From: Olavius algarvensis Delta 4 endosymbiont
GTDB taxonomy: Bacteria > Desulfobacterota > Desulfobacteria > Desulfobacterales > CAJINA01
Direction: 5' to 3'
Assembly: GCA_905176665.1 (NCBI GenBank)
Contig: CAJINA010000008.1
Span: forward strand, 276-64,275
Length of the DNA stretch: 64,000 nt
The notes under the pieces were generated by a model, which was not told the origin of the DNA, did no database searches, and saw only the letters and a program-made list of their open reading frames with translations. Each line of letters starts with the position of its first letter. Position 1 is the stretch's first letter. A program made the translations under genes and the position numbers. This document shows, piece by piece, positions 3 through 21,568 of this stretch.

Positions 3-2069
3 GGCGGTTTGACGTTTACTTCGGGTGGGAACGGGACAGGTAGCATGAAATTTACCGGGACTGTCGCCAACATCAACACGGCAATGGATGGCATGAGTTT
101 TGATCCCACGCCGGCCTACAGCGGAGCGGCCAGCCTGCAGATCGATACGGACGACCTGGGAAATACCGGCGTTGGCGGAACAATGAGCGACAGCGACACA
201 GTGGCAATCACCGTCAATGCAACGAATACCCCGCCGAATGCTACAAACCTTAATGCAGCGGAAACATACACCGAAGATATTCCGCTCGATTTGACGAATA
301 TCGTTATTACAGATGCGGATAGCGCCAACGTCACCGCCACATTAACCCTCTCGAATCCGGCTACCGGCACACTGAACACCGATACATCCGGGCTGGTCAC
401 CTCCACCTTTGCCGCTGGCGTGTGGTCGGCCTCGGGCGCGATTGCCGATGTGAATACGTTGTTGGCCGGTGTTGCATTCACACCTACGGCCAATTTTAAT
501 GGCGGCTTTACCATCGCCACCAGCGTAGATGATGGCATTGCACCGGCCGTAACAGGCAATAAGGTTGTCACCGGCACCCCGGTCAACGATGCGCCGACCT
601 TAACATTGTTCTTAGGCCCGATTGATACGACCATAGAAGATACGCAGGGCGAGATTACATTCGCCGAGCTGGCCGCCCAAGGGGATGAGGCCGACCTGGA
701 AGGTACAGTGGGCGGTTTCGTCGTTACGGCGGTGAATAGCGGCACACTTTTGATTGGGGCCAATCCGGGCAGTGCGACGGCCTGGGCAGCCGGGACCAAC
801 GACACGATCGACGGGACCAACAATGCCTACTGGACGCCGGCCGCCGATGCCACGGGCACGTTGAACGCCTTCACAGTGGTTGCTGAAGATAATTCGAATG
901 CTGAATCGACAACCCCGATTCAGGCACAGGTGACGGTGACTGCTGTCAACGATGCGCCGACGGCTTCAAACCTGAACGCTGGGGAAGCCTATGATGAGGG
1001 GACACTCCTGAATCTGACCAACATCGTGGTCAGCGATGTGGACAGCGCCAATGTTACGGTTACCCTAACCCTGTCTGATCCGGCTGCCGGAACCCTCAGC
1101 ACCGGCACCGCCGGGCTGGTCACCTCCACCTTTGCCGTTGGGGTGTGGACGGCTTCGGGAGCCATCGCTGATGTCAATACCTTGCTGGCCGGCACGGCCT
1201 TCACCCCGGCGGCCGGCTACACCGCTGACTTTACCATTGCCACCAGTGTGGACGACGGTACGGCGCCGCCGGTGACAGGCGTTAAAAATGTATCCCCGGC
1301 TGCCCCTGCAGATCCAACCCCGCCGACACTGCCGGTGGACGACACCGACCCTGACCCCATAACCCCGCCTGATCCGGAACCCGAACCGGCACCGGAAGAA
1401 CCTCCGCCGACAGAACCCGAAGAAGATGCTTCCCCGGATGCCGATGCCTTGAACGAAGAGGAGTCGGGTGATAACGTAACGGAAATTCCACCGACAGCCG
1501 CCGGAGACGTGTCGTCACAGCAAAGGATCGGCGCGAGCACGCTGAGGGGATTTGGGCTGCGGGCCCTCCAAAGTGCAAGCCTCGCATTGGGCGCGGATCT
1601 CGAGGTGAATGCGGCCCGCGAAACAGCGCGCGAGGGTCAACCGGCATGGTCGGTAGTCCCGCCCCGGGCTGCATCAATGGCCTTCGGTACGCTATCGACG
1701 CAATTGGGCACGCTGACGGTACGTGCTATTGAATTTCTGGAAAGCTCGCTGGACGAGATGAAAAAAGAAACGGAAGAAGGGATCGCCCTCAACCAGGTGG
1801 CTGCCAGCTCAGCTATCGCCGTAACAACCGGTTTGTCCGTGGGCTACGTGGCCTGGCTGCTTAGAAGCGGCGTGCTGCTCAGCTCACTGCTGTCTTCCAT
1901 GCCGGCCTGGCGGGTTCTGGACCCGTTACCTGTGCTGGCCGGTAAACTGGGCTTTGACGAGGAGTCAGACGAAGAATCCCTGGAGAGCATCATCGAGCAG
2001 CCTTCGCCACCGTCCACCGATGACACCCCGGAAGAGGCGTCTGCCGCTTCTGAAGTGAAGGAAACGTAA
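3..2069 (+). CDS. Large repetitive surface protein/adhesin (cadherin-like/tandem-95-type repeats), C-terminal part; 5' end lies outside the window
   Basis: Frame is open from the window edge. T/A/D/G-rich VNDAP-type repeats, a Pro/Glu linker, then hydrophobic C-terminal motif GLSVGYVAWLLRSGVLLSSLLSSMPAWRVLDPLPVL and an acidic tail. Confidence 0.85.
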   Translation, partial: GGLTFTSGGNGTGSMKFTGTVANINTAMDGMSFDPTPAYSGAASLQIDTDDLGNTGVGGTMSDSDTVAITVNATNTPPNATNLNAAETYTEDIPLDLTNIVITDADSANVTATLTLSNPATGTLNTDTSGLVTSTFAAGVWSASGAIADVNTLLAGVAFTPTANFNGGFTIATSVDDGIAPAVTGNKVVTGTPVNDAPTLTLFLGPIDTTIEDTQGEITFAELAAQGDEADLEGTVGGFVVTAVNSGTLLIGANPGSATAWAAGTNDTIDGTNNAYWTPAADATGTLNAFTVVAEDNSNAESTTPIQAQVTVTAVNDAPTASNLNAGEAYDEGTLLNLTNIVVSDVDSANVTVTLTLSDPAAGTLSTGTAGLVTSTFAVGVWTASGAIADVNTLLAGTAFTPAAGYTADFTIATSVDDGTAPPVTGVKNVSPAAPADPTPPTLPVDDTDPDPITPPDPEPEPAPEEPPPTEPEEDASPDADALNEEESGDNVTEIPPTAAGDVSSQQRIGASTLRGFGLRALQSASLALGADLEVNAARETAREGQPAWSVVPPRAASMAFGTLSTQLGTLTVRAIEFLESSLDEMKKETEEGIALNQVAASSAIAVTTGLSVGYVAWLLRSGVLLSSLLSSMPAWRVLDPLPVLAGKLGFDEESDEESLESIIEQPSPPSTDDTPEEASAASEVKET
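231..1286 (+). repeat. Two ~110-aa intragenic domain repeats (approx. 231-563 and 955-1286)
   Basis: NLNAAETYTE...GVWSASGAIADVNTLLAG...FTIATSVDDG recurs as NLNAGEAYDE...GVWTASGAIADVNTLLAG...FTIATSVDDG. Confidence 0.85.
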
Positions 2070-2072
2070 TTA

Positions 2073-5000
2073 ATGGGTCGGTTGAATGTCAAATTCCGCG
2101 TGGTTATCGGCATGGTCGGCCTGGTGATCAGCCTCGTCTTTCTGGCCCTTTTTCTCGGCGTCATCCCGGACCGGATCGGCGCCGTGCGCGAGGGACGCCG
2201 TTCCCTGGCCGAAGCCCTGGCGGTGCACGGCGCGGGCCTGGTGATGCAATCCAGCTATCAGCGCTTGGAAGCCGACCTGGACTTGATCGCTAAAAGAAAC
2301 CCGGATCTGCTTTCCCTGGCCTTGAGGCGGACGGATGGCCGCAGCATCGTTTCAATCGGTGATCACGAGGGACACTGGCTGCCCATGGAAGCAAACTTCA
2401 CCCGGGCTAACCAGATCCGGGTGCCCATATCCGACGGCAAACAAAAGTGGGGGCAGCTGGAGCTGCGCTTCAAGCCCCTGCAACACGAGGGACTCAAGGG
2501 GGTTCTTCAAATTCCATGGGTCCAGATCGGGCTGTTCCTCGGGCTGGGGTGTTTTGTCGCCTTTTACCTGTATCTGGGCCGCGTGCTGCGTCAGCTGGAC
2601 CCCTCCCAGGCCATCCCCGGACGAGTGCGGGCCGCCCTTGACACCATGGCTGAGGGGTTGCTGGTCGTTGATCCGAAGGAACAGATCGTGTTCGCCAACA
2701 AGTCTTTCGCCGAAATGTTTCAACAATCGCCGGAGAAGTTTATCGGCCACAAGGCCGGCGAACTGCCCTGGATCGACACAGAGGGCAATAAGATAGAAAG
2801 AGAAAACCGTCCGTGGATCCAGGCCATGGAACAGGGGCAGCTGCAGACAAACCGCATGCTACGACTGCAGGTTTCGGACGACGAGTGGCGCACGTTCAAT
2901 GTCAACTGCGCGCCGGTACTGGGCAGTGCTGAAAAATGCGCTGGGGTGCTCATCGGCTTCGACGACGTGACGCTGCTCGAAAAAAAAGAGATCGAACTGC
3001 GCAAGTCCAAGGAAGAGGCCGAAACCGCCAACCAGGCCAAGAGCGTGTTTCTGGCCAGCATGAGCCACGAAATCCGCACCCCCATGAATTCCATTCTCGG
3101 TTTCACCGAGATCCTCAAACGCGGCTATGCCCACAGCAAGGAAGAGACCCGGCGACACCTCAACACCATTCATTCCAGCGGAAAAAACCTTTTGGCTTTG
3201 ATCAACGACATCCTGGATCTGTCCAAGGTGGAATCCGGCCACGTCGAGGTGGAAAAGACCTGGGGCGAGCCCCACCGGATTGCCCAGGAGGTCCTGCAGA
3301 GCCTGAAAGTCCAGGCGGATGCAAAAGGGCTGTATCTGCGCTTCAATGCGGAGAGTGCCCTGCCGCAAAAAACAGAGACCGATCCGGTCCGCTTCCGGCA
3401 AATTGTTTTCAACCTGGTGGGCAACGCCATCAAGTTCACGGAAACGGGGGGCGTGACGGTTGGTCTGCGCTTCGAGGACAACCGCGCCGGACCCCGCCTG
3501 ATTGTCGACATTAACGACACCGGCATCGGCATCCCGAGTGATAAAATCGAGAGCATATTCGACCCCTTTACCCAGGCGGATACCTCGATCACCCGCCGAT
3601 TCGGCGGAACGGGCCTCGGCCTGTCCATCAGTCGCAAATTTGCCCGCCTGCTGGGCGGCGATATCCGGGTGTCCAGTCAACCGGGCACGGGCAGCCTTTT
3701 CCGGGTTATCGTGGCTACGGGTGACACGACATCGATTCCTTTTCTCCAACCTGAGGAGATGGCGGTGACCCTGGATGAGATCGGTAATGACAAACCGGCC
3801 CGGTGGCGGTTTAACAAGGCACGCGTCCTGGTGGTAGAAGACGGTGTTGAAACCCGAGAACTCCTCCGGCTGCTGCTCACCCAGGCAGGCGTTGATATGA
3901 ACGAGGCGGAGAACGGGCTGGAGGGTCTCAAAAAAGCAACCGCCGAAACCTACGACGTCATCCTGATGGATGTAAACATGCCGGTTATGGACGGCTTTAC
4001 CGCGGCCGGGAAAATGCGCCAAAACGGGGTGCAGTCATCGATCATCGCCATGACCGCCAACGCCATGAAGGGCTCCGAGCAGGAATGCCTGGATGCCGGA
4101 TACTCGGGGTACCTCCCAAAGCCCATCGATATCGATCAGTTAATGCAATTGATGGCTGATCTCGTGGGTGGTGAGCAGATCCCGGAAACGGCAGACACAT
4201 CCCCCGCGTCCCCCGCACAGCAGAAACCCGCCACCCCCAGGAAGAAGAAAGGTGCCCCGGTTCCGCTCGTATCCAAGCTGCCGGGCGATAACGCGGCATT
4301 TCAAAAGATCATTGATAAATTTATTTCTCAGCTGCACAACAGGCTGGAGTCTGCCGTGCAGGCCAGACGCCAGGGCGATCTGGTTAAAGTCGCCGCCTTT
4401 GCCCACTGGCTCAAAGGGGCCGGCGGTAGCGTGGGCTTTGACGAGTTTACCGCGCCGGCCAAACAGCTCGAAGAGCTGGCCAAGGAAGGGGGCGACGAAT
4501 ACGGCATGGCCCAGGCCTGGAAAAATATTCACCAGTTGGTCGACCGCCTGAAGGTAACCGAAGATGCGCTCAGGGCGTCAGGGTCGGCCGACGGCCGGTC
4601 GGGCCCACCGCCTGTATCGACGGGCGCCCTTGCCCCGGCCGAAACCACGGGCAACAAGGTCAAACCGCTGTTTTCCCGTTATACCGAACTACCGGAATAT
4701 CAACCGACGATTCGGCTTTTCATCGAAACACTCGATATAAACATGTCAAAAATGGAGCAGGCCTTTACGCAGGGCGACTGGCAAGAACTGGTGGCCCTGT
4801 CGCACTGGCTGAAAGGGGCTGCTGGTACGGTAGGCTTTGGTGCGTTTACCAAACCGGCCGCGGAACTCGAAAAATCCGCCAAAGCACAACAGGCGGATCA
4901 GGCGGGCAGGATGTTGGCTCAGGTGAAGCGGCTGAAGGACGCGGCCCGGCCACCGGATGCAGGCGGGGGACACGACACAGAGACGGCAACTGTCACGTAG
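2073..5000 (+). CDS. Hybrid sensor histidine kinase (2 TM, PAS, HisKA, HATPase, REC, two Hpt domains)
   Basis: SHEIRTPM H-box, NLVGNAIKFT, DTGIGI, GGTGLGLSI, REC (ILMDVNMPVMDG), Hpt motifs AHWLKGAGG and SHWLKGAAG. Confidence 0.93.
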   Translation: MGRLNVKFRVVIGMVGLVISLVFLALFLGVIPDRIGAVREGRRSLAEALAVHGAGLVMQSSYQRLEADLDLIAKRNPDLLSLALRRTDGRSIVSIGDHEGHWLPMEANFTRANQIRVPISDGKQKWGQLELRFKPLQHEGLKGVLQIPWVQIGLFLGLGCFVAFYLYLGRVLRQLDPSQAIPGRVRAALDTMAEGLLVVDPKEQIVFANKSFAEMFQQSPEKFIGHKAGELPWIDTEGNKIERENRPWIQAMEQGQLQTNRMLRLQVSDDEWRTFNVNCAPVLGSAEKCAGVLIGFDDVTLLEKKEIELRKSKEEAETANQAKSVFLASMSHEIRTPMNSILGFTEILKRGYAHSKEETRRHLNTIHSSGKNLLALINDILDLSKVESGHVEVEKTWGEPHRIAQEVLQSLKVQADAKGLYLRFNAESALPQKTETDPVRFRQIVFNLVGNAIKFTETGGVTVGLRFEDNRAGPRLIVDINDTGIGIPSDKIESIFDPFTQADTSITRRFGGTGLGLSISRKFARLLGGDIRVSSQPGTGSLFRVIVATGDTTSIPFLQPEEMAVTLDEIGNDKPARWRFNKARVLVVEDGVETRELLRLLLTQAGVDMNEAENGLEGLKKATAETYDVILMDVNMPVMDGFTAAGKMRQNGVQSSIIAMTANAMKGSEQECLDAGYSGYLPKPIDIDQLMQLMADLVGGEQIPETADTSPASPAQQKPATPRKKKGAPVPLVSKLPGDNAAFQKIIDKFISQLHNRLESAVQARRQGDLVKVAAFAHWLKGAGGSVGFDEFTAPAKQLEELAKEGGDEYGMAQAWKNIHQLVDRLKVTEDALRASGSADGRSGPPPVSTGALAPAETTGNKVKPLFSRYTELPEYQPTIRLFIETLDINMSKMEQAFTQGDWQELVALSHWLKGAAGTVGFGAFTKPAAELEKSAKAQQADQAGRMLAQVKRLKDAARPPDAGGGHDTETATVT

Positions 5001-5349
5001 TGTTGTGTCCCTGAAATTTTTCATTAAAACCTGGTGTAACGGTAACATGCTTATAATACTTAAAATCCGAATATTGAAACCCGAATCAAAAAAGGTAAAT
5101 CACAATGAACTAAAGAAACATAAAAAGCCTGTCATTATAAACGTTAAGCGGCTGTTTTTGTCATTGGTCATTAGAATTTCGAATTTGTTTGCGGCGTTCG
5201 CCTTGAGAAGCTTGCGGATTTAATTAATCTCCAAAACCAGGATAGAACTGCGCCGGGAGGACGACTCCCCGAAGCTTACTGGAGAGAATGATCTGCTTTT
5301 ATACTGGAATTGTTAGACAAATGGCCTAAAATATTATAAAAGTCGACTC

Positions 5350-6204
5350 ATGATTGCCAACCTCAAATTAAGCCTGTTTCTGATCGTGGTCAGCGGGCTC
5401 CTGGCCGTCAGCCCCACCGTTTCCCATGCACTGGAAGTTCAGGCGGTAACCATGCCCAGCGCGGACATCACCCTTTCCTTCGTCATTTCCGGAAAAATCG
5501 CCGAGATTCATGTCAAAGAAGGCGATACTGTGGAAAAAGGTACCCTGCTGGCGGCCCTGGACGATGATCCCGAAAGAATTCAAACAGAGCAATTGAAGGT
5601 TCAGGCCGCGGACAAGATCCGCATCCTGTCGGCAAAAGCGGAATTGGCCCAGAAGATGGTGGACCTGGAAAAGTTTGATGCGGCCCGGCAAAAGGGTGCG
5701 GTCAGCGAATGGGAAGTCGCGCATATGAAGCTGAGTGTCCGGATGGCGAAGCTTGCGCTTCAGGCGGCGACCATCGAACATGAGCAGTTTCAGCGCCAGT
5801 ATTCCCAGGCCGTCCAACAACTCGCGCGTATGCGTATCGTGTCCCCGATTCCGGGACGCGTGGAAAAGGTCTTCGCGGAGGTTGGCGAAGGGGTTGAAAA
5901 ACTCGGACCAGTGGTTGAGTTGGTCGAGACGGATCCACTCTGGCTTGATGTCCCGGTCCCCCTGCCCCAGGCCAGGCATCTGGACAAGGGGCAACAGGCG
6001 GTGGTCCTATTTTCGGGAAATCCAACCGGTAAACCGGCTGATGGGCGGATTGTCTACATTTCATCTGTCGCCGACGCAGCCAGCGACACCCTGCGGGTCC
6101 GCGTCGAAGTAGGCAATTCTTCCGATCGTCCAGCAGGCGAACGGGTGACCGTCAGCTTTCCGCAAATCGGTAACAGCAAGGTCGCGGACAAATCCCAAAA
6201 TTGA
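5350..6204 (+). CDS. Efflux RND/HlyD-type periplasmic adaptor subunit
   Basis: Signal peptide, lipoyl-like GKIAEIHVKEGDTVEKG, coiled coil, IVSPIPGRV, beta-barrel C-terminus. Confidence 0.88.
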   Translation: MIANLKLSLFLIVVSGLLAVSPTVSHALEVQAVTMPSADITLSFVISGKIAEIHVKEGDTVEKGTLLAALDDDPERIQTEQLKVQAADKIRILSAKAELAQKMVDLEKFDAARQKGAVSEWEVAHMKLSVRMAKLALQAATIEHEQFQRQYSQAVQQLARMRIVSPIPGRVEKVFAEVGEGVEKLGPVVELVETDPLWLDVPVPLPQARHLDKGQQAVVLFSGNPTGKPADGRIVYISSVADAASDTLRVRVEVGNSSDRPAGERVTVSFPQIGNSKVADKSQN

Positions 6205-8030
6205 AAACAATGAGCGAACTGCAGCGAACCGACGGGGCACTTACCCGGATTCTCACGCGGGTTCTCGGCAGTCAGTGCCGGCAGGTGCGGGCGACTGGCG
6301 GCGTCATCCTACGATCCGTCGATAAGAAGAACCTGTCCATCCTCGCGACTTTTCCGCCATCCGACACCAATAGCGAGCGTCCCAAATGGATCTCCCCTGC
6401 CCTGGACGCCTGCCTGGAGGTCTTGTCCGTTGGTAATGCGGCGATTGTGCCGCCATCTTCGCAACAAGGCTCCGGGGCACCAAGCCGCAGCCATGCCATT
6501 ATTGCCATTCCGATTAAAAAAAAGAATAGTGTCCGAGCGGTGGCGGCGTTTCTCGTCCCCGAGAAAGACCCCCGGGAACTGGTGGCCCTAAAGGAGCAGC
6601 TGAAAAACACCTCCCTTTTACTGGACCATTGCGAGCTTATCCTGACTCTGAATAACCACCGAAAGGTGATTGATCGTCTCTCCCTGGTACTGGACGTCAT
6701 GGCGGTGTGCAACCAGGCCAGGCACTTCGCAAGCACCGCCGTGGCTTTGTGCAACGCGCTTGCCGATAAATTACGCTGTCACCGCGTCAGTTTAGGCGTA
6801 CTGGAAGGTCGCTATGTCCGCGTCCACGCCATAAGCCGCACCGAAACGTTCCGCCGGGAGATGAAGTTGACCCAGGACATCGAAGCGGCCATGGAAGAAT
6901 GCCTGGACCAGGATGTTGAGATCATGTACCCGGCGGAACCGGAGGCTGCTTTTGTCCAGCGCGCCGCCCGCCAGCTTTCCGAACAACACGGCCCAGCCGC
7001 TATTCTTACCCTCCCGATCCGACGAAACAGCCAACCAGCTGCGGTGCTTTTACTAGAACGCCCGGTCGACCATCCGTTCGCGGACCTGGATGAAATCGAA
7101 GCGGTCCGTTTGACCTGTGATCTCTGTGCGCCGCGACTTATGGAGCTTAGGGCTCACGACCGTTGGTTTGGGGCCCGCCTGGCGGCCGCGACTCGAAAGC
7201 GGGTCGGATCGATTCTCGGACCTCGTCACATCGGCCTCAAATTGGGAGCCGGTCTTGTTTTTCTCGCAGCCCTATTTCTGGTGTTTGCAAAAGGGGACTA
7301 CCGTATCGATGCACCGTTTGTTTTTGAAGCTGCTGTTAAGCAGTCCGTGGTGGCGCCATTTGATTCGTTTATCAAACGGGTTGCGGTGGATCCCGGACAG
7401 ACGGTCGAAGCTGATCGAACCATCCTGGGTGAATTGGAATCCGCTGATCAACGGCTGCAACTGGCGGCTTTGAAAGCCGAGCAGCTGGGGCACCGGAAAC
7501 AGCGCGCCGCAGCCATGCGGGACGGAAAGACATCCGCGGCCCAGATGGCTGAGGCGCAGATCGAAAAACTGGCAGCTCAGATCCGCCTGATCGAACGCCA
7601 TATCGAACAGGCTACCCTGGTGGCGCCGGTCACAGGACGCCTTGTGTCAGAGGATCTCAAACATCGACTCGGTGCTCCGGTGGAAATGGGCGCTGTTCTG
7701 TTTGAGTTCGTCCAGACCGAACAGCTGCGCGCGGAACTATTCGTACCGGAGGAGTCGATCCTCCTGGTCAACGTAGGCCAGTCCGGGGAATTAGCCGCTG
7801 TCGGCCGTCCCAATCAGAAGATCCGTTTTGTCATAGAACGCATCCATCCCATTGCCGAGGTGGTCGAACAACAAAATTCGTTCAGAGTGCGCGCCGGCCT
7901 GCTCAACCGGCCGGACTGGATACGGCCGGGCATGGAGGGGCAGGCCCGCATCGAGGTGGGGAGAAGGCACTATGCTTGGATCTGGACCCACCGGGTAACG
8001 GACTGGCTGAGGATGAAGCTCTGGCTCTAA
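6201..8030 (+). CDS. GAF-domain HlyD family adaptor protein
   Basis: N-terminal GAF-like regions, TM at ~aa 345-362, VVAPFDSFIKRVAVDPGQTV, LVAPVTG, C-terminal RPGMEGQARI. Alternative ATG at 6210. Confidence 0.85.
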   Translation: MKTMSELQRTDGALTRILTRVLGSQCRQVRATGGVILRSVDKKNLSILATFPPSDTNSERPKWISPALDACLEVLSVGNAAIVPPSSQQGSGAPSRSHAIIAIPIKKKNSVRAVAAFLVPEKDPRELVALKEQLKNTSLLLDHCELILTLNNHRKVIDRLSLVLDVMAVCNQARHFASTAVALCNALADKLRCHRVSLGVLEGRYVRVHAISRTETFRREMKLTQDIEAAMEECLDQDVEIMYPAEPEAAFVQRAARQLSEQHGPAAILTLPIRRNSQPAAVLLLERPVDHPFADLDEIEAVRLTCDLCAPRLMELRAHDRWFGARLAAATRKRVGSILGPRHIGLKLGAGLVFLAALFLVFAKGDYRIDAPFVFEAAVKQSVVAPFDSFIKRVAVDPGQTVEADRTILGELESADQRLQLAALKAEQLGHRKQRAAAMRDGKTSAAQMAEAQIEKLAAQIRLIERHIEQATLVAPVTGRLVSEDLKHRLGAPVEMGAVLFEFVQTEQLRAELFVPEESILLVNVGQSGELAAVGRPNQKIRFVIERIHPIAEVVEQQNSFRVRAGLLNRPDWIRPGMEGQARIEVGRRHYAWIWTHRVTDWLRMKLWL

Positions 8031-8045
8031 CCCGAGCATGCACCG

Positions 8046-8241
8046 CAAGGCAAAACCCTGCATCGCGCAGAGACGCAGAGCCGCAGAGAAACGCAAAACC
8101 AGGATTTGGTCGCACTGTCGTGCGAAAAACATTATTGAACTGCAGGGAATAAAAGCCTTTTGGTTTTAATCCCGCGAAGCGGAAAATATTCATGGTTTTC
8201 TCTGCGCCTCTGCGCGAGAATAGTGGTTTCACAGCACAGCC
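8046..8241 (+). repeat. Intergenic repeat family B (inverted CGCAGAG arrays)
   Basis: cgcgcagagacgcagagccgcagagaaa ... ttttctctgcgcctctgcgcgag. Homologous copies at 44619-44869 (reverse) and 63875-64000. Confidence 0.85.
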
Positions 8242-8350
8242 AAATATCTCTTTAATAGCTATCATGGCAAAACGACTGTGGCGAAGTTGAAGACCTTGCT
8301 CCCGACGGTCAAATATATAGGGGCGCAATACAAACATCTGGCAGGTAATC

Positions 8351-10528
8351 GTGACGGAAACACGCCCGACATTCAGCGAATCGTGGTACCGGGTTGCCAA
8401 CTTGACCCCGCGGCTGCTCCCTGCGGTAAACGTACACCGTCAGCACTTTCGGGGCGCCCTGTGGTACGTTCTGCAAAATCCGGCCAACAACGAATACTTT
8501 CGGCTCAACGACGGGGCCTATCATTTTGCAGCGATACTCGATGGGCGTCGAACTGTGAACCAGGTTTGGCGGCTGTCCTTGGAAGCGTTCGGCGACGCCG
8601 CACCGACCCAGGGCGAAGTCGTCGATCTTCTGACCCGGCTTTATGCGGCCAACCTGCTCCAGGGCGATGTGGCCCCGGACGCAGAAGCGCTGTTTAAGCG
8701 GCGCCAGATTCGAATGTGGCGCGAAGTAAAGGGGTTTTTGCGAAATTTTCTCTTTATCCGGATTCCCCTGTGGGATCCGGATCGATTCCTCGACCGGTGG
8801 GTTCCGGTTTTCGGAAAACTCTTCACGGGGTATGGATTCTTCCTGTGGGGCGTCATCATCGTGGCGGGATTGTGGGTGGTCGGCGGCCACACGCAAGATC
8901 TTACCCGGCAGGCCGCGGGCGTCCTGAACCCGCATAACCTGCCGTGGTTGTACCTGGCGCTCGTCATACTCAAAACTTTTCACGAAATGGGTCATGCCTT
9001 TGCCTGTAAGCATTTCGGAAAACTGACGGGTTCCGGAGGAGAGGTACACCAGATGGGTGTGACCTTGCTTGTCTTCACCCCGCTGCCCTATGTGGAAGCG
9101 TCCAGCGCCTGGGCGGTACGCAGTAAATGGCATCGGATCGTCATCGGGGCCAGCGGTATGCTGGTCGAACTGGCCATTGCGGCGGTCGCCGCCATCGTCT
9201 GGACCCTTACTGCCGAGGGGACCACATTACATGCCATCACCTACAATGTAATGTTCATCGCCAGCGTTTCCACCGTGGTTTTTAATGGTAACCCGTTTTT
9301 GCGCTACGACGCCTATTACATCCTGCTGGATCTTATCGAAATCCCAAACCTCGATTCCCGGTCAAAAGCCTACCTTGCCTTCCTGGCCAAACGCAATCTA
9401 TGGGGCCTCATAGGTGCCCATGATCCGAGCCATACGCCGGGAGAAAGGATATGGCTCGTGATCTACGCCGTTGCGGCCATGATCGTACGGATAGCCGTAT
9501 CCGCAGGGATCGTGATCTTCCTGGGAAGCCGGTTCTTTCTGCTCGGCATTGGCGTTGGGATCTTTATGGTGACCACTTGGTTATTGCTTCCCCTGGGGAA
9601 CCTGCTGCGGTACCTGGTGACCGCTCCCGAACTGTCTCGGGGGAGATCGCGGGCGGTCATGACGACCTTCGCTGCCGGGTTGCTTTTTATAGCAGTCGCG
9701 GGCTTTTTTCCGGTGCCGGATCGTTTTCGCATAGAGGGCGTAGTGGAGCCGGTCAGCTACGCTGTCCTCCATATGCGAACTGACGGATTCGTCGAAGATT
9801 TTTTAACTTCCGGCCGGCAGACCGGTCCCCAAGGTCCCGTCCTCATTGCGGCCGCATCACCGTTTCTGGCGAGTCGGCGAGACCTGCTCGCGGCCGAACT
9901 GCGCCGACTTCAAATTGAACGACAACAGGCCCGATCCCAGGAGCCGGCCGCGGTCCAGATTATCGAAGAGAAGCTGGCCGCGCTCAGAGAGCAAATTGAA
10001 CGCAACCGGGAAGAGATGGCGGATCTGATACTGCCCGCTCCCATCAGGGGCACATGGGTGGCCCCGGATATCGATCGCGTAAGGGGGCGGTACCTGAAAC
10101 AGGGGGAGCGTATCGGGACCGTTGCGGATCTGGACAGGGTGCGCATCCGGGCGGTGGCCGGCCAGACAGTCGCCACCCAGATGATCCGTGAAGCCCGCCC
10201 GGCCGTCGAAATCCGGGTCAAAGGACAGCCGGACAGATCGCTGCGCGGCCATATCGAGTCCATCATTCCGGCCGGCCAGGAACGACTCCCCTCGGTGGCA
10301 CTTGGTTTTGCCGGCGGAGGATCGATCCGTACCGCATTGGATGACCCGGAAGGGCGTCAAACGGCCGAACCGTTTTTTGAGATTCTCGTGGCCCCGGAAA
10401 TACCGGGAAACAAGCGTCTGATGCCGGGCCAGAGTATGGTGCTGCGCATTGATTCCTTCCCGAAGCCGATGTTCGTGCAAGTCTATAAAGCGTTTTTGCA
10501 GCTATTTCAAAGGAGGTTCCAGACCTGA
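8351..10528 (+). CDS. PqqD/RRE-like + site-2 protease (M50) + HlyD-like adaptor fusion membrane protein
   Basis: GTG start. N-terminal YVLQNP..YFRL..LDGRRTV winged-helix-like segment, FHEMGH zinc motif, NGNPFLRYD, multiple TMs, C-terminal coiled coil and LPAPIRG lipoyl-like part. Confidence 0.88.
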   Translation: MTETRPTFSESWYRVANLTPRLLPAVNVHRQHFRGALWYVLQNPANNEYFRLNDGAYHFAAILDGRRTVNQVWRLSLEAFGDAAPTQGEVVDLLTRLYAANLLQGDVAPDAEALFKRRQIRMWREVKGFLRNFLFIRIPLWDPDRFLDRWVPVFGKLFTGYGFFLWGVIIVAGLWVVGGHTQDLTRQAAGVLNPHNLPWLYLALVILKTFHEMGHAFACKHFGKLTGSGGEVHQMGVTLLVFTPLPYVEASSAWAVRSKWHRIVIGASGMLVELAIAAVAAIVWTLTAEGTTLHAITYNVMFIASVSTVVFNGNPFLRYDAYYILLDLIEIPNLDSRSKAYLAFLAKRNLWGLIGAHDPSHTPGERIWLVIYAVAAMIVRIAVSAGIVIFLGSRFFLLGIGVGIFMVTTWLLLPLGNLLRYLVTAPELSRGRSRAVMTTFAAGLLFIAVAGFFPVPDRFRIEGVVEPVSYAVLHMRTDGFVEDFLTSGRQTGPQGPVLIAAASPFLASRRDLLAAELRRLQIERQQARSQEPAAVQIIEEKLAALREQIERNREEMADLILPAPIRGTWVAPDIDRVRGRYLKQGERIGTVADLDRVRIRAVAGQTVATQMIREARPAVEIRVKGQPDRSLRGHIESIIPAGQERLPSVALGFAGGGSIRTALDDPEGRQTAEPFFEILVAPEIPGNKRLMPGQSMVLRIDSFPKPMFVQVYKAFLQLFQRRFQT

Positions 10529-10529
10529 G

Positions 10530-12518
10530 ATGAGTTTCGTCCCGAGTACAACCTGGCGCATGCTTTCCCAGGACCCGCCCCTGCTCGACATTTTGCGGGG
10601 ACTCGACGGTGTGTATCACCGGGCAACGGGCTGCCTGGGGAACGTCTTCCAGGGTCAATCCGTCTTTCTCCGGCGGGCCGAGCATATCGTAGCGCTGGAA
10701 AAACGTTTCGCGCACCTGTCGGACAGCGCTCTTCAGGACCTGCTGGTCGGGTTGCGAGACCGGTTTCGCCGCGGGCGGGAGACCATCGCGGACCTGGATC
10801 AGGCGTTTGCCATCGTGCGCGAGGTCGCCGACCGGACGCTTGGCCTGCGGCCGTACACCGTCCAAGTGGCCTGTGGCCTGGCCATTGAAGCAGGCTGTAT
10901 AGCGGAGATGGCCACCGGTGAAGGCAAAACCCTGGCTGCAACCATGCCTGCCATTGTGGCCGGCTGGCGCAACCGGGGGTGCCACGTCATCACAGCCAAT
11001 GAATACCTGGCCCAGCGGGATGCCGCCTGGATGGCCCCCGTCTATCGGTATTGCGGCGTGACGGTCGGCTGGCTGGAAAATGCCATGTGGCCGGCCGCGC
11101 GAAAACGGGCGTATGACGCCGACATCACCTATGGCACCAGCCAGGAGGTTGCGGCGGACTTCCTGCGCGACCGGCTCGCCCTGGGGCGGATTCGCGGACT
11201 TTCGGCAGCGCTACTGGAACAAATGACGGGTATCCGCCCCGGTCCGGTCGATCGCCTAGTTCAGCGCGGCCTCGGGTGTGCCATCGGCGACGAGGCGGAT
11301 TCAGTTCTGATTGACGAAGCGGTGACACCTTTGTTAATTTCGGGCACGGGTCCGAACCCCGATCAAGAGGTTGCCTATGTGGTAGCTGCACGAGTGGCCG
11401 CAAAGCTGGTTGCCCAGGTCGATTACCAGGAGGATCGCGGTCACCGGGAGGTGGCCCTGACGTCCGCTGGGAAAGCTCGAATTTCGCAACTGGCCAAAGA
11501 CTTCGGGAGTTTCTGGGCGGGTGCCAGACGCCGGGAGGAGCTCGTCGTTCAGGCCCTGATGGCCAAAGCCTTCTTTCTGCGCGACACACACTACGTGGTC
11601 GACAATCAACAGGTGGTCATCGTCGATGAATTTTCAGGAAGGCTCATGCCCGATCGAACCTGGCGTGCAGGCCTCCATCAGGCGATCGAAGCAAAAGAGG
11701 GGCTCGATGTTCAGCTGCCCAGGGAAACCCTGGCCCGGATCAGCTTTCAGCGTTTTTTTGGCCTCTACGCGAAGTTGGCCGGAATGACGGGAACCGCGGC
11801 GGAGGTCCGCAACGAACTCTGGCAGATATACCATCTCCCTGTAGCGGTTATTCCACCCCGACATGTATGTAAACGGTCCCTGCGGCCGGACTGTATATTT
11901 TTAAATGAAGAAGCAAAATGGAGGGCGGTCATCGCTGAAATCCGCAGCGAGCACGAGATCGGGCGCCCGGTCCTGGTGGGGACACGCAGCGTGGAAGCCA
12001 GCGAGTCCCTCAGCCGGCGATTAACCGCTGCAAACCTGGACCATGCGGTTCTCAATGCCGTCCGGCATGACGCCGAGGCGCAGATCATTGCCGGCGCCGG
12101 CCGGAGCGGACGCATTACCGTCGCAACGAACATGGCCGGCAGAGGGACCGATATCCGGCTGGGTCAGCATGTTGCTGCGCTGGGGGGATTGCATGTGGTT
12201 GCCACGGAGCGCCACGAGGCCCGCCGGATCGACCGGCAATTATTTGGCCGCTGCGCCCGCCAGGGCGATCCCGGCAGCGCCCGGGCTTTTGTGAGCCTGG
12301 ATGACGAATTGCTGCAACGGTACGCGCCGCCGGTCTGGAAAAAATCGTCGTCCGTTGCTGGAGAAGGCGCCCGGGAAATTACTTCCGTTTTTTCCCGTCG
12401 ACGGGTCGCACTGGCTCAGCGTCGCGCCGAGCGGGTCGCTTTTCGCCGTCGTAAAGAAGTACTGCACGCAGACCATTGGCTCGACGAACACCTGGGGTTT
12501 ACGCTCAAAGAAATTTAA
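10530..12518 (+). CDS. SecA-like (SecA_DEAD) ATPase paralogue, lacking the C-terminal scaffold/wing/zinc-tail region
   Basis: ATG 10530 after AGGAGG (10511-16). EMATGEGKT, NEYLAQRDA, DEADSVLIDEA, GMTGTA, TNMAGRGTDI, RRIDRQLFGRCARQGDPG. Only ~662 aa. Confidence 0.92.
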   Translation: MSFVPSTTWRMLSQDPPLLDILRGLDGVYHRATGCLGNVFQGQSVFLRRAEHIVALEKRFAHLSDSALQDLLVGLRDRFRRGRETIADLDQAFAIVREVADRTLGLRPYTVQVACGLAIEAGCIAEMATGEGKTLAATMPAIVAGWRNRGCHVITANEYLAQRDAAWMAPVYRYCGVTVGWLENAMWPAARKRAYDADITYGTSQEVAADFLRDRLALGRIRGLSAALLEQMTGIRPGPVDRLVQRGLGCAIGDEADSVLIDEAVTPLLISGTGPNPDQEVAYVVAARVAAKLVAQVDYQEDRGHREVALTSAGKARISQLAKDFGSFWAGARRREELVVQALMAKAFFLRDTHYVVDNQQVVIVDEFSGRLMPDRTWRAGLHQAIEAKEGLDVQLPRETLARISFQRFFGLYAKLAGMTGTAAEVRNELWQIYHLPVAVIPPRHVCKRSLRPDCIFLNEEAKWRAVIAEIRSEHEIGRPVLVGTRSVEASESLSRRLTAANLDHAVLNAVRHDAEAQIIAGAGRSGRITVATNMAGRGTDIRLGQHVAALGGLHVVATERHEARRIDRQLFGRCARQGDPGSARAFVSLDDELLQRYAPPVWKKSSSVAGEGAREITSVFSRRRVALAQRRAERVAFRRRKEVLHADHWLDEHLGFTLKEI

Positions 12519-12519
12519 T

Positions 12520-12634
12520 TAGAGGCTGTCTCAAAATAGAATTTTGGTTACGGCCCCGTCTTTGCTTTCCAAGCTGCGCCGGACAAGACGCCGGACAGGC
12601 AAGGCGGTAACAAGGCCTTTATTGAGATAGTCTA
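12520..12634. mobile_element. Miniature inverted-repeat element, family A (degenerate)
   Basis: tagaggctgtctcaa ... ttgagatagtcta termini match the other family A copies. Confidence 0.6.
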
Positions 12635-12660
12635 GAGGCCCTATCGAAAGGTTTAACATC

Positions 12661-14727
12661 ATGATTAAACGCTATGTTTCAGGGGTTGCCGCCGTTCTTT
12701 TTCTTTTCATTATCGTCTCAGCTGCCGGGGGAGAGACCTACCAGCCGGTCCTGGACAACTTGAAAGGTCAGGAGTGGAAGTATCGCGACACCAAAGGGGA
12801 GATCCATCTCGGCAAGGTTGCGACCCTGCGCTATCCCGCCTATTCGGTCGCGGCAAATAAACGCTACCGGACGCTCCTCGAGCAGTTGTCCGAGGCATTG
12901 AAAATAACGGCCAGAAAAGATTATAAGATCGTGTTAAGGGGATATACCGACAGCAGTGGATCGCCGTTGGCCAACCAGCGCATCTCCCTGAAACGCGCAC
13001 AAGCCCTGAAAGATTTGCTGACACAGGATCCCGCCATGGCCCTCCAGGCAGGCAGGATTCAAGTCGAGGGACCCGGCTCGGCTGACCCGGTGGCCTCCAA
13101 TCAGACTACAGAGGGACGGGAGCGTAATCGCCGGGTTGAAATCCACATTTACGGCAATGTGAGTGAGGCGGTCAGGACGATCGCTACGGCCACACCCGCC
13201 ACCGTCTCTGAAGCCGTCAAAAAGGAAAGGCCGATTGCCGGCGACGTAACATCGGCCCCATCCGCACGGCCTTTGCCAACCTCAGAGGGTGCACCACCGC
13301 CGGGATCAAAGATCGTGCGCCTGTCTCTTTTCGATGCCATCCGCCACGGTCTTGAAGAAAACCAGGAGATTCGGGTTGTCGCCTTTACCCCGCAGCAGGC
13401 TCAGGAAGGCCTGGCAGATGCCGAATCGGTTTTCGATCCCGAATTTTTTACCGAGGGGACGTTCCGGCGGGACCCGAATCTGCAATCGAGCGTAACCCGG
13501 GTGGTTATGGAAGATGACAGCCTCGTGCAAACGGGAATTCGAAAGCCCCTCGGTACCGGCGGCAGCGTATCCGGTGCACTGGCAGCGAATTATGGGGATT
13601 TGATCAACGCCGAATTTGATCGAACGTACCGATACACTTTCGCCCCGACCTTTGAAATCAGGCAGCCCTTGCTAAAAAATATCGGCGGCCGGGAGGAAAA
13701 AGCCGCCATCAAGATTGCCAACTATCAAGTCGGCATCTCGAAAGAGGCGTTTCGGCGGAAAGTGATCGACATTGCCACCCGTATCTCCAAATCCTACTGG
13801 CAGCTATACCTGCTCCGGGATTATGTGGTCATCGACCGGCAGAATTTCGAAATGGCCGATGAGGTTTTCCGACGGGAAACCGTCCGGGTCATGCAAGGCC
13901 TCTCGCAGCAGCTCGATGTCGAGCGGGCCCGCAGCCGGGCCGAAAGCCGGCGGGGAAACCTGATTAAATCCAAAGAGCGCCTCCGGGTGGGTATGGACCA
14001 GCTGAAACTCTTGATCAACTGGTCGAACTTAACTATCGACTCGGATGCAACGATTGCGCCCACCGATGAGCCGCATATGGAATATCTGGATGTGAAGGAA
14101 GCCGAAGTTATTGAAAAGGCGTTTTTGTATCGTCCGGAACTGTTGCAGGCCAAACAACGCGTGAGCATCCGCAGGGTTGAAGAAGAACTGACTGACCACC
14201 TTAAATTGCCGACCCTGGATCTGTTCGGGCGCTATGCCGTCAGCGGATACGGCCGGGAGTTTTCGACCGCAGTTGACAATACGGCCTTCAACGATGAGGA
14301 TGCCTGGGCCGCCGGATTGAACTTTGAATATCCGATCGGCAACCGATCGAACGCGGCCAAGGCCCGCCGGAAAAAACTCGAGCGCCGTCAGTCGGAAGAA
14401 CAGGTCGCCCGGTTGAGAAACCAAATCAAGCAGGAGGTCAAGGCGGTGCTCCTCGCGATCGATTACGCCAGAGGTGAAATCAAGTCCACGCAGATAGCGC
14501 AAGAATCCGCCCGGAATGTGGTCGAAGGTGAATTCACCCGGTTTGATATCGGCCAGACAACCAACGTGGAACTTTTGCGGGCCCAGGACCTGTACGCCGC
14601 CACCAGCCGCAGTTTCACCCGGGCGATTGTGGATTACAATATTGCCCTGGCGGAGCTCAAAAGGGTCCAGGGCGAGCTGCCCCAGGGGTTGTCGATCGAG
14701 GAGCTTGAAGGGCAGGCCGGAAATTGA
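12661..14727 (+). CDS. OmpA-like peptidoglycan-binding domain fused to TolC family outer-membrane channel
   Basis: Signal peptide; GYTDSSG..NQRISLKRA..NRRVEI (OmpA_C); LSLFDAIRHGLEEN, QPLLKN, RPELLQA, LPTLDL (OEP repeats). Confidence 0.9.
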   Translation: MIKRYVSGVAAVLFLFIIVSAAGGETYQPVLDNLKGQEWKYRDTKGEIHLGKVATLRYPAYSVAANKRYRTLLEQLSEALKITARKDYKIVLRGYTDSSGSPLANQRISLKRAQALKDLLTQDPAMALQAGRIQVEGPGSADPVASNQTTEGRERNRRVEIHIYGNVSEAVRTIATATPATVSEAVKKERPIAGDVTSAPSARPLPTSEGAPPPGSKIVRLSLFDAIRHGLEENQEIRVVAFTPQQAQEGLADAESVFDPEFFTEGTFRRDPNLQSSVTRVVMEDDSLVQTGIRKPLGTGGSVSGALAANYGDLINAEFDRTYRYTFAPTFEIRQPLLKNIGGREEKAAIKIANYQVGISKEAFRRKVIDIATRISKSYWQLYLLRDYVVIDRQNFEMADEVFRRETVRVMQGLSQQLDVERARSRAESRRGNLIKSKERLRVGMDQLKLLINWSNLTIDSDATIAPTDEPHMEYLDVKEAEVIEKAFLYRPELLQAKQRVSIRRVEEELTDHLKLPTLDLFGRYAVSGYGREFSTAVDNTAFNDEDAWAAGLNFEYPIGNRSNAAKARRKKLERRQSEEQVARLRNQIKQEVKAVLLAIDYARGEIKSTQIAQESARNVVEGEFTRFDIGQTTNVELLRAQDLYAATSRSFTRAIVDYNIALAELKRVQGELPQGLSIEELEGQAGN

Positions 14728-14750
14728 CAAACCACCGCGGCTCATCTATA

Positions 14751-14898
14751 GCTATAACCTATCTCTAAAAAGTCTTTTGGCCAAACTCGGCGTTGGGCGC
14801 TCGGTTCAAGTTCTCAAGATACTCGAGTATTCCTCCGGGTTAAACCACGCGGCCGCCTTGATTTTGGACCAAAATCCGTTTTTGAGATAGGTTATAGC
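14751..14898. mobile_element. Miniature inverted-repeat element, family A
   Basis: Perfect 15-bp terminal inverted repeats gctataacctatctc/gagataggttatagc. Internal sequence matches 22389-22584 in reverse. Confidence 0.85.
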
Positions 14899-14996
14899 CT
14901 GTTTCCGCGATCAGTTTATTGAGTGGTAGGTCGATACCGTAAATAGAACCTGACTGCCATCGTACTCGTCTGGACGACCGGTTACCCGGAGTTGCC

Positions 14997-15218
14997 ATGG
15001 ATAAAAAAAACAGAAAAAGCATGCAACTGGTCGGTGTATTCTTCCTGGGATGCGTGCTGTTCAACTATCCGATCATTACACTTTTCAACATTGACAAATT
15101 CGTACTGGGGCTTCCCTTGCTGTACATCTGTCTCTTCGGCAGCTGGGCGGTACTCATTGTCCTTATCCTGCTGATCATGGAAACCGGCCGGAAGCAGGAA
15201 AAATCCAATTCCCGATGA
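14997..15218 (+). CDS. Small two-TM membrane protein, likely partner of the downstream solute-symporter kinase
   Basis: 73 aa, two hydrophobic segments, GGAG before ATG, directly upstream of an SLC5-domain gene. Confidence 0.75.
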   Translation: MDKKNRKSMQLVGVFFLGCVLFNYPIITLFNIDKFVLGLPLLYICLFGSWAVLIVLILLIMETGRKQEKSNSR

Positions 15219-15260
15219 CCCTTACCGGCATTACAGTTAGCGCAGCCCGCGAGATAATCT

Positions 15261-19991: not shown

Positions 19992-19995
19992 GGGT

Positions 19996-21390: not shown

Positions 21391-21568
21391 AATCCCCTCG
21401 GGCAATTAAAAAAACAGTTGGAAATAATTGTCATATTTTGTTACCTTAATTAATTGTCTCCCAATAAAACAACGGCTCCCGGCCAAGACGCCGGCACAGT
21501 TCAAATATGTCCCGTTGGCCAGCGTCGAGAGCGGACCATATAAACTTTGGGCCGGTTTCCGGCGGGCG

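Follow-up and report, generated by a model that had tools for sequence, protein, structure and literature searches.

The 64,000-nucleotide stretch of DNA analysed here as a whole (the window; G000:C8:276-64275) belongs to the genome of the Olavius algarvensis Delta 4 endosymbiont, whose assembly comprises 286 contigs and is 96.95% complete; the records of homologues carry Desulfobacterales-type labels. At the start of the window lies a run of seven genes, which encode the end of a giant surface protein, a hybrid sensor histidine kinase, three proteins with HlyD-type periplasmic adaptor domains, a short SecA-like ATPase and an OmpA-TolC outer-membrane factor (Table 1). One of the three adaptor-bearing proteins also combines a PqqD-like RRE, the recognition element of ribosomally synthesized and post-translationally modified peptide (RiPP) systems, with an M50-type intramembrane peptidase. 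The genes from the small adaptor to the outer-membrane factor are treated below as a candidate export module for giant proteins of the LEPR-XLL family. The first-pass annotation had described the seven genes as a same-strand run, and the list of open reading frames (ORFs) together with Pfam matches reproduced their order, strand and boundaries over window positions 3-14727, with one correction: the most likely start of the SecA-like gene is the ATG at 10530, one base past the stop of the RRE-M50-HlyD gene, and not the TTG at 10449.

Table 1. Genes of the run, with the matches that identify them, and places of the C-terminal domain of the giant protein (TM, transmembrane)
Feature	Position	Strand	Matches and other features
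Giant surface protein, C-terminal 688 aa	3..2069	+	Pfam Cadherin_4 26.4 bits, NCBIfam tandem-95 repeat; frame open at 5' end
Hybrid sensor histidine kinase	2073..5000	+	Pfam PAS, HisKA, HATPase_c, Response_reg, two Hpt; 2 TM-like segments 10-28, 150-168
Small HlyD/RND_mfp-type periplasmic adaptor, 284 aa, N-terminal hydrophobic segment	5350..6204	+	Pfam HlyD_D23, HlyD_3, Biotin_lipoyl_2
GAF-HlyD	6201..8030	+	Pfam GAF 25.8 bits, HlyD_3, HlyD_D23; one TM-like segment 344-362
RRE(PqqD)-M50-HlyD fusion	8351..10528	+	Pfam PqqD 29 bits (above cut-off), Peptidase_M50 20.8 bits (below cut-off of 27.2), HlyD_D23
Short SecA-like ATPase, 662 aa	10530..12518	+	Pfam SecA_DEAD 310 bits, SecA_PP_bind, P-loop_SecA
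OmpA-TolC outer-membrane factor	12661..14727	+	Pfam OmpA 56 bits (N-terminal, peptidoglycan-binding type), OEP 120 bits
C-terminal domain sites of giants	window 1700-2069; L004:3303-3860; L035:787-1191; L098; L102:11711-11977; L104:1760-2008

The cluster is a member of a module that was described by Kamneva, Poudel and Ward in 2015 (PMC4452313), a paper that the first-pass annotation had cited and that says what it was cited for. A carrier of the module named there is Methylobacterium extorquens AM1 (META1p2399-2402). According to its accessible text, secondary SecA_DEAD proteins without wing and scaffold are encoded beside Peptidase_M50/HlyD, GAF/HlyD and HlyD/Biotin_lipoyl proteins, sometimes with an OEP protein and without an ATP-binding cassette (ABC) protein, in a patchy distribution over Planctomycetes, Verrucomicrobia and Proteobacteria-type lineages. 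The SecA_DEAD protein was proposed there to be the ATPase and the M50 protein a possible pore, and the biological role was called "completely unknown". The window shares with these loci the same four core proteins, a SecA lacking wing and scaffold, the ABC-less surroundings and an OEP protein, which only sometimes adjoins. In contrast, no cargo or signal is named in the accessible text of that paper; what the present analysis adds to it is the RRE domain, the link to LEPR-XLL cargo, a predicted contact of the leader, OmpA fused to TolC, and a hybrid kinase and a C-terminal domain that go together with the giant gene.

The arrangement of these genes is far from chance. A pattern scan with one genome per species yielded at least 591 confirmed relatives among the 600 stretches listed, of which the best 80 loci, from Desulfobacterota, Acidobacteria, Chloroflexi-type, Planctomycetota, Verrucomicrobiota and Victivallales records, were kept; the M50-HlyD family itself has at least 2564 proteins at E<=0.001 among 8000 scored candidates. 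The short SecA gene lies directly 3' of the M50-HlyD gene in 68 of the 71 loci with at least 1.5 kb downstream, and the GAF-HlyD gene directly 5' of it in 65 of the 66 loci with at least 1.5 kb upstream. Where at least 8 kb is available on both sides, the small adaptor (at least 35% identity) is found in 14 of 29 loci and a TolC homologue in 11 of 29, and the cluster of the small adaptor is present in 40 of 81 loci. In the three loci without SecA directly 3' (L028, L029 and L070), no substitute ATPase was recognised by an NCBIfam scan of one downstream ORF each: that of L028 (582 aa) has no family match, that of L029, on the opposite strand, matches sortase-target/VWA-type families, and that of L070 has a PEP-CTERM domain. 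A small gene of the DUF3467 family (about 120 aa, Pfam E=5.3e-18) recurs between the small adaptor and GAF-HlyD in 19 of the 80 loci, which are planctomycete-type (e.g., L025:1492-1872 and L068:7839-8198), and this family has no match in the window's genome. Its predicted fold consists of four strands and a long helix (predicted local distance difference test, pLDDT, 71.5), and its model has no Foldseek match in the Protein Data Bank at E<=0.001 and a best Z of 3.0 in a wide VIA-align search, so that a role as a SecB-like chaperone finds no support.

The giant protein of the window is represented by a fragment with cadherin-like/tandem-95 repeats, a proline/acidic linker and a conserved, moderately hydrophobic C-terminal domain, and its frame is still open where the contig ends 275 bases 5' of the window. 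The only above-cut-off match to the LEPR-XLL motif (NF012209) in this genome lies on contig C156 (3086-3127, minus strand; 28.7 bits, cut-off 17), at about residues 47-58 of a frame of at least 1090 aa that runs off the contig and in which the motif is followed by DUF4347 (176 bits) and a beta-helix-like region. In the closest relative (G001:C23; L004/L105), a single 1376-aa gene directly 5' of the hybrid kinase and the module carries both the C156-type leader with its post-leader sequence and the window-type C-terminal domain, and a divergent REC-kinase-REC gene 5' of the giant is common to C156 and L004/L105. The 1858-aa orthologue of G165:C21 is complete, with LEPR-XLL, DUF4347, cadherin repeats and the C-terminal domain followed by the kinase, and is located 3' of the SecA-like gene. 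Since both orthologues join the two parts, window positions 3-2069 and the C156 frame are probably the two ends of one gene broken in the assembly. Cysteine is nearly absent (0 in the 688 aa of the window fragment and 2 in the 1090 aa of the C156 fragment), and the last 688 aa of the giant show no Pfam match to the repeats-in-toxin (RTX) family HemolysinCabind at E<=0.01.

Giant ORFs adjoin many loci of the module, and three of four giant N-termini scanned with NF012209 score above 17 bits (L068, 27.2; L063, 20.1; L079, 19.7), with none at E<=0.001 in L072. The C-terminal domain (about 90 aa, hydrophobic and then acidic) follows the pattern GYV-W-hR-G-LL-x-LSS-P-W-x-DPLPVL and is conserved in all six aligned giants, which come from Desulfobacterota and one planctomycete. 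It has no Pfam or NCBIfam family match and may be the "MtxA-like" C-terminus named in a Chlorochromatium preprint. A tblastn search with the last 189 aa of the giant found it only in L004 and L035 among the 80 loci, and it was later seen in the second giant of G002, in G165 and in the planctomycete G459; one planctomycete giant that ends in this domain has an 11,600-aa frame. With 2 of 80 loci, the domain was rejected as a signature of all loci; it is restricted to some giants and therefore marks a subset of the cargo. In G002:C2, at about 537000-566000 (L087, L093, L098 and L035), two tandem LEPR-XLL giants (4997- and 3434-aa frames), each with its own hybrid kinase, stand 5' of one module.

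The hybrid kinase gene follows the giant closely. Its orthologue lies directly 3' of the giant gene in L004, L035, L098 (the second giant of G002) and L102 (G165), so that a kinase comes after the giant in every Desulfobacterota locus in which the 3' end of the giant is seen, the window included; it was not found beside the module in the planctomycete loci among the best 80. Judged by gene order, the kinase is a putative lineage-specific regulatory partner of the giant gene. A REC-GGDEF-EAL protein is encoded between the hybrid kinase and the small adaptor in L035:4444-6246 and L009:344-2125, with none at the same place in the window, and this insertion hints at control of the module by cyclic diguanosine monophosphate. 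The hybrid kinase, the GAF domain and the REC-GGDEF-EAL insertions together suggest that export is regulated.

The LEPR-XLL motif also tracks the module across genomes. Above-cut-off motifs are present in 10 of 10 module-bearing genomes reached through the loci, three planctomycete genomes holding 10-18 each, and 9 of 80 loci contain an ORF, 300 aa or longer, whose first 90 residues include the motif; with the motif reversed, the count is 0 of 80. In a sample of 201 Planctomycetota genomes (M50-HlyD profile at E<=1e-30, LEPR-XLL at E<=1e-3), M50-HlyD was found in 56 and the motif in 22, all of which are among the 56, and none of the 145 module-free genomes has the motif (Fisher p=1.7e-14). Among genomes whose M50-HlyD match reaches 490 bits, a cut chosen after the data had been seen, 21 of 25 have the motif, compared with 1 of 31 with weaker matches. 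The weaker matches are paralogous RRE-M50-HlyD genes, some of which stand beside short SecA genes (G399, G267 and G396), and the genomes with only these paralogues mostly have no NF012209 match; other leader types may therefore exist. Single planctomycete genomes (G396, G267, G399 and G354) carry as many as four RRE-M50-HlyD paralogues and as many as four short SecA genes, some of them adjoining, and one genome has four of both kinds.

The same trend is seen in 251 Desulfobacterota genomes (module at E<=1e-30, motif at E<=0.05), of which 17 have the module, 20 the motif and 10 both (odds ratio 32, Fisher p=1.2e-8); at the stricter motif threshold of E<=1e-3, 5 of 7 motif-bearing genomes have the module. 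In 6 of the 10 genomes with both (G165, G206, G039, G171, G244 and G021), the end or start of a giant gene lies within about 8 kb of M50-HlyD on the same contig, and these giants include frames of 19,211 and 9,417 aa. The Fisher p values of both samples overstate the link because related genomes are not independent.

The RRE-M50 part of the fusion protein, to which the first-pass annotation had assigned no function, is probably the signal-recognition and leader-cleavage unit. Its Peptidase_M50 score lies below the Pfam cut-off, and the assignment is upheld because residues 20-408 match the daptide-type RRE-M50 protease model NF041824 (142.9 bits, below its cut-off of 300), the HEMGH motif is intact at 211-215, and N312-P315 and D320, the latter closing the segment NPFLRYD, are invariant. 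H211, E212 and H215 are likewise invariant in 13 of 13 aligned homologues, to which the invariance of N312-P315 and D320 also refers. The leaders of the giants consist of a basic N-terminus followed by F-E-x-L-E-P-R-x-L-L-S-[AG], with E48, L50, E51, R53, L56 and S57 invariant in all 11 aligned sequences, in none of which a hydrophobic Sec-type core or Sec signal peptide is present. Complex prediction was performed for RRE-M50 residues 1-460 (13-row alignment) and an 89-aa leader (11-row alignment), together with three controls, and gave scores of 0.71, 0.67 and 0.65 (median 0.67) for the pair, compared with 0.00 for each control; the mark against which this score is read is reached by 58 of 80 solved complexes and by 2 of 110 mismatched pairs. 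Contacts agree between the runs to at least 50%, and the leader pLDDT is 47-56. On the leader side, the predicted interface comprises residues 41-60, which is exactly the motif, and on the enzyme side RRE residues 48-53 and 83-100 and M50 residues 211, 212, 215 and 317-320, so that the predicted contact residues are the invariant positions of both alignments. The LEPR-XLL motif is thus predicted to bind the RRE strand and the HExxH site of RRE-M50. The first-pass annotation had regarded the protein as an exported adhesin; the LEPR-XLL motif on C156, the co-occurrence of motif and module, and the predicted RRE-M50 contact make the giant the likely cargo, and the motor and channel part of that claim is carried forward as a proposal.

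In its order of domains, a PqqD-like element followed by an HExxH intramembrane protease, and in the leader predicted on an RRE beta-strand, this unit resembles the RRE-M50 leader peptidases of RiPP systems (NF041824 and NF058609). Unlike these, it is fused to a periplasmic HlyD domain and linked to a SecA-like ATPase and TolC, and its predicted substrates are not short peptides but proteins of hundreds to about 19,000 residues. It would be possible to suppose that the exported substrate is a small RiPP-like peptide, matured like a daptide or epipeptide through leader binding by the RRE and cleavage by M50, and that the giant just happens to lie next to the module. The PqqD domain fits this idea, as do the RiPP proteases at the head of the NCBIfam matches for the N-terminal half (daptide HExxH, 142.9 bits; YydH/LiaK model NF058609, 40.3 bits), yet both scores lie far below the cut-offs of 300 and 225 bits. 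The unit shares with the daptide family the RRE and HExxH M50 architecture. When 1106 ORFs from the 80 loci and the first 25 kb of the window were clustered, no conserved small precursor-like ORF or modification enzyme emerged; the only recurrent small gene is the DUF3467 gene (19 loci), which this genome lacks. Both the co-occurrence of motif and module and the predicted contact favour LEPR-XLL proteins instead, and export of a RiPP-like peptide is highly improbable.

In the short SecA-like ATPase, both nucleotide-binding domains (NBD1 and NBD2) and the preprotein cross-linking domain are retained, of the scaffold only the first helix is left, and neither a wing domain nor a C-terminal tail is present; the GEGKT and DEAD motifs are kept. 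Its alignment to the Bacillus subtilis SecA chain 3jv2_A (a 783-residue construct) covers residues 25-607 of that chain. The genome encodes a canonical SecA of 839 aa with a Cys-rich C-terminal zinc-finger tail on contig C259, which settles the question, raised in the first-pass annotation, of whether a full-length secA exists elsewhere. The two proteins are 41.7% identical over residues 26-608 of the canonical SecA, whose residues 609-839, which we take to be the wing domain, the two-helix finger entering SecY and the SecB-binding tail, have no counterpart in the short protein. Across phyla, this short form is 46-73% identical, which exceeds its identity to the housekeeping SecA of its own genome.

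Accessory SecA2 systems of Gram-positives and mycobacteria employ a second SecA for a few unusual, often large surface proteins, and the window cluster resembles them in having an extra SecA paralogue that is presumably dedicated to such proteins. It differs from them in that no SecY2 or Asp partner is found among the recurrent neighbours, the ATPase is truncated after the first scaffold helix, and its partners are HlyD and TolC proteins of a diderm envelope. The short SecA might still be an accessory SecA2 that works with the ordinary SecYEG channel and brings the giant or the adaptors into the periplasm, HlyD and TolC then serving a second step from there to the outside. The identity to the housekeeping SecA across motor and clamp, the strong partial matches to the NCBIfam SecA2 models (bits/cut-off: TIGR04397, 546/1085; TIGR03714, 479/930; TIGR04221, 455/725; NF012136, 422/1100), and the placement of the clade next to actinobacterial SecA2 in the accessible text of PMC4452313 would agree with this. 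Against it, the short SecA is below the cut-off of every NCBIfam SecA and SecA2 model, the region matching housekeeping residues 609-839 (two-helix finger, wing and SecB-binding tail) is absent, LEPR-XLL substrates have no Sec signal peptide, and neither secY2 nor asp is among the recurrent neighbour clusters of the loci; action on SecYEG is therefore improbable.

The remaining components of the module are of the kind found in envelope-spanning exporters. The small adaptor matches NCBIfam TIGR01730 with 122.4 bits, above the cut-off of 94.9, and GAF-HlyD has a cytoplasmic N-terminal region with the GAF domain, then the TM-like segment and a periplasmic HlyD adaptor. Full-length matches to OmpA-TolC that include the OmpA part are confined to the close relatives L004 and L005. 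Type I secretion systems (T1SS), including peptidase-containing ABC transporters (PCAT; colicin V, CvaAB-TolC) and the systems of giant adhesins (LapBCE-LapA), are tripartite assemblies of an ABC protein, an HlyD-type adaptor and TolC. The window cluster resembles T1SS and PCAT in its HlyD-type adaptors and TolC (three HlyD-domain proteins and one OEP protein), in a giant, repeat-rich, Cys-poor cargo, in an N-terminal leader that is predicted to be recognised and is probably removed by a built-in protease, and possibly in a cargo held back by the part that is translocated last. In contrast to T1SS, a SecA-family ATPase is present and no ABC protein, and three adaptor-bearing proteins take the place of one; in contrast to PCAT, whose protease is a C39 cysteine protease, an RRE-guided M50 metalloprotease is encoded. 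RTX adhesins carry a C-terminal signal, whereas the signal here is N-terminal and RTX is missing from the C-terminal 688 aa. LapA-type adhesins are retained by their N-terminus, and a C-terminal tether of the giant would mirror this with reversed polarity. The T1SS-specific NCBIfam models TIGR01843 and TIGR01844 are below cut-off for the module proteins, and the cluster is not a member of the T1SS because it has neither a linked ABC gene nor C-terminal RTX repeats.

The absence of a linked ABC gene was examined by tblastn at E<=1e-6 with 28 ABC ATPases of the same genome as queries, in the window and in the related loci with up to 10 kb of flank. The first-pass annotation had seen no ABC gene in the run, and none was found in the whole 64-kb window. 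Among the 80 related loci, a single one (L015) has an ABC domain, in a 654-aa protein with Walker A near its N-terminus and encoded on the opposite strand. The region 5' of the window was read through orthologues and C156 because only 275 bases are left on the contig, and the upstream inspection that the first-pass annotation had asked for showed no T1SS-type ABC exporter on contig C156 or in the orthologous L105. An ABC exporter hidden upstream of the giant gene was rejected as a candidate, since the ABC protein of L106 is a standalone 252-aa ATPase 3-5 kb upstream and not a fused exporter. This ATPase (L106:2734-6688; G002, 5' of the giants) is the only ABC protein near any examined Desulfobacterota locus with both giant and module, and the genes beside it are presumably Mla/MCE-like. 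Elsewhere in the window's genome, three fused ABC candidates of the transmembrane domain (TMD)-NBD type are encoded, on C75, C108 and C282.

Based on these results, the module is more likely than not a TolC-linked route that spans the envelope and exports LEPR-XLL proteins under the guidance of their leader, with the SecA-like ATPase standing in place of the ABC engine; the motor and channel roles are assigned by inference. There is about an even chance that it represents a distinct type of diderm secretion system, in which a LEPR-XLL leader would be read by an RRE and cut by M50, a wingless SecA would drive cargo of up to about 19,000 residues, N-terminus first, through a conduit of three adaptors and TolC, and the conserved hydrophobic C-terminal domain would hold some cargos at the cell surface. 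A possible mechanism is as follows. The cytoplasmic PqqD-like RRE may bind the leader (a basic stretch, then FEALEPRLLLSA) by beta-strand addition and present it to the adjacent intramembrane HExxH site, which could remove it. The short SecA, having kept its NBDs and preprotein clamp and lost the parts that engage SecY and SecB, may then feed the unfolded, nearly Cys-free cargo, N-terminus first, into an inner-membrane assembly to which M50 would contribute its membrane domain and the adaptors their membrane anchors. From there to the OmpA-TolC channel, the periplasm could be bridged by the HlyD domains of the three adaptor-bearing proteins, and the hydrophobic C-terminal domain of the giant, translocated last, may tether the protein to the cell. 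Gating or regulation of export could be provided by the GAF domain and the hybrid kinase. Among these steps, leader recognition is the one that computation supports, through the predicted complex; leader cleavage, the SecA-like motor role, the channel, the polarity and the tethering are what we infer around it. The first-pass annotation had proposed a distinct SecA-driven export machine, and of this the conserved ABC-less TolC/HlyD-type module with a SecA paralogue stands, now with a giant as likely cargo, while the motor and the adaptor channel keep the rank of a proposal.

The module might instead be a processing or regulatory device, in which RRE-M50 cuts the leader or the C-terminal anchor of the giant in the manner of a site-2 protease, export proceeds through SecYEG or an unlinked ABC T1SS, and the SecA-like protein does no more than unfold the substrate or present it. 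Such a device would suit the M50 family, which is known above all for cutting within the membrane, as well as the kinase and the GAF domain at the locus, and the fused TMD-NBD-type candidates on C75, C108 and C282 could supply the ABC transporter; nevertheless, three HlyD-type adaptors and TolC in one operon make little sense unless substrates pass through them, no ABC gene was found in 79 of 80 neighbourhoods, a hydrophobic Sec-type core is missing from the leader, and no HemolysinCabind match is present in the last 688 aa of the giant. A mere processing device is thus unlikely, though two of the observations that fit it belong to a wider set that weighs against the TolC-linked export route. 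No inner-membrane channel protein was identified among the module proteins. According to the accessible text of a Vibrio paper, a LEPR-XLL giant there ends in C-terminal RTX domains, and because of it at least some LEPR-XLL proteins could use a classical ABC T1SS, so that the motif need not always mean the SecA-module route. The module occurs without a motif match in 34 of 56 planctomycete and 7 of 17 Desulfobacterota genomes, and in two Desulfobacterota genomes (G129 and G152) a good motif match is not accompanied by a module match at E<=1e-30. In Planctomycetota, the motif gene stands beside the module in only 2 of 22 genomes (G394 and G360), the link being otherwise at the level of the genome. 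The giant gene of the window is split over at least two contigs, and its continuity is read from orthologues. The complex score is a measure of model confidence and may partly reflect likeness, because RRE-leader complexes of RiPP systems have been solved, and the fold of the leader is uncertain, with a pLDDT below 50 in two runs. Finally, the SecA-like, M50 and HlyD genes of Methylobacterium extorquens show no or weak expression in exponential growth, as stated in the accessible text of PMC4452313.

Several features of the window outside this argument are recorded here. Promoter and terminator scans of positions 1900-15400 gave the same counts as shuffled sequences (7 vs 5.9 and 21 vs 17.2), and nothing notable was seen in the 320-base gap at 8031-8350. 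A 914-aa histidine kinase with a long multi-TM N-terminal half of about a dozen hydrophobic segments is encoded 530 bases 3' of TolC (15261-18005, plus strand) and is not kept beside the module in other loci. At 22625-26964 (plus strand), an SPFH/Band 7 protein (313 aa) is followed at once by a 1132-aa protein with AAA ATPase and Lon_C protease domains, an unusual pair. A DUF3786-domain protein (129 bits) at 19086-20090 (minus strand) is overlapped by long ORFs of the opposite-strand type at 19846-21453 (plus) and 19996-21405 (minus), which have no Pfam match, and the gene calls around it are uncertain.

The LEPR-XLL family (NF012209), to which the giant of the window corresponds in having the motif at its N-terminus, has been connected with export before. 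For the planctomycete motif RRLxxExLExRxLLA, a function as a novel export signal was put forward by Studholme et al. in 2004, according to the accessible text of PMC8567305. A 2026 preprint on the LEPRxLL giants of Chlorobium chlorochromatii describes them, in its accessible part, as being without known transport signals and proposes SapC, TolC and HlyD; SapC was considered here as an extra component and dropped, there being no PF07277 match in the window's genome. In a 2023 preprint, as far as its accessible text goes, SecA-like domains without wing and scaffold are fused into giant Omnitrophota proteins, for which self-export was suggested. Our search, which left most subscription journals outside its reach, found no mechanistic study of the module and no paper linking the LEPR-XLL motif to a SecA-like module or assigning it a machinery for export. 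The module itself has been known in silico since 2015; the link between cargo, signal and receptor is, as far as was found, unpublished and is directly testable.

If the proposed route is correct, it would connect the export of the largest bacterial proteins, the purpose of the LExRxLL motif and the role of the orphan "secondary SecA" loci. The signal would be defined by six invariant leader positions and the receptor by RRE strand 48-53 together with the HExxH site, and the motor would be defined as well. A SecA-family ATPase would for the first time be seen to drive protein export through TolC, and recognition by way of a leader, a principle familiar to date from small peptide natural products, would reach proteins thousands of residues long. 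In practical terms, surface and secreted proteomes could be predicted with it in Planctomycetota, Desulfobacterota, Verrucomicrobiota and their relatives. The planctomycete "export signal" of 2004 and the giant LEPR-XLL proteins, including those of phototrophic consortia, would thereby gain their machinery.

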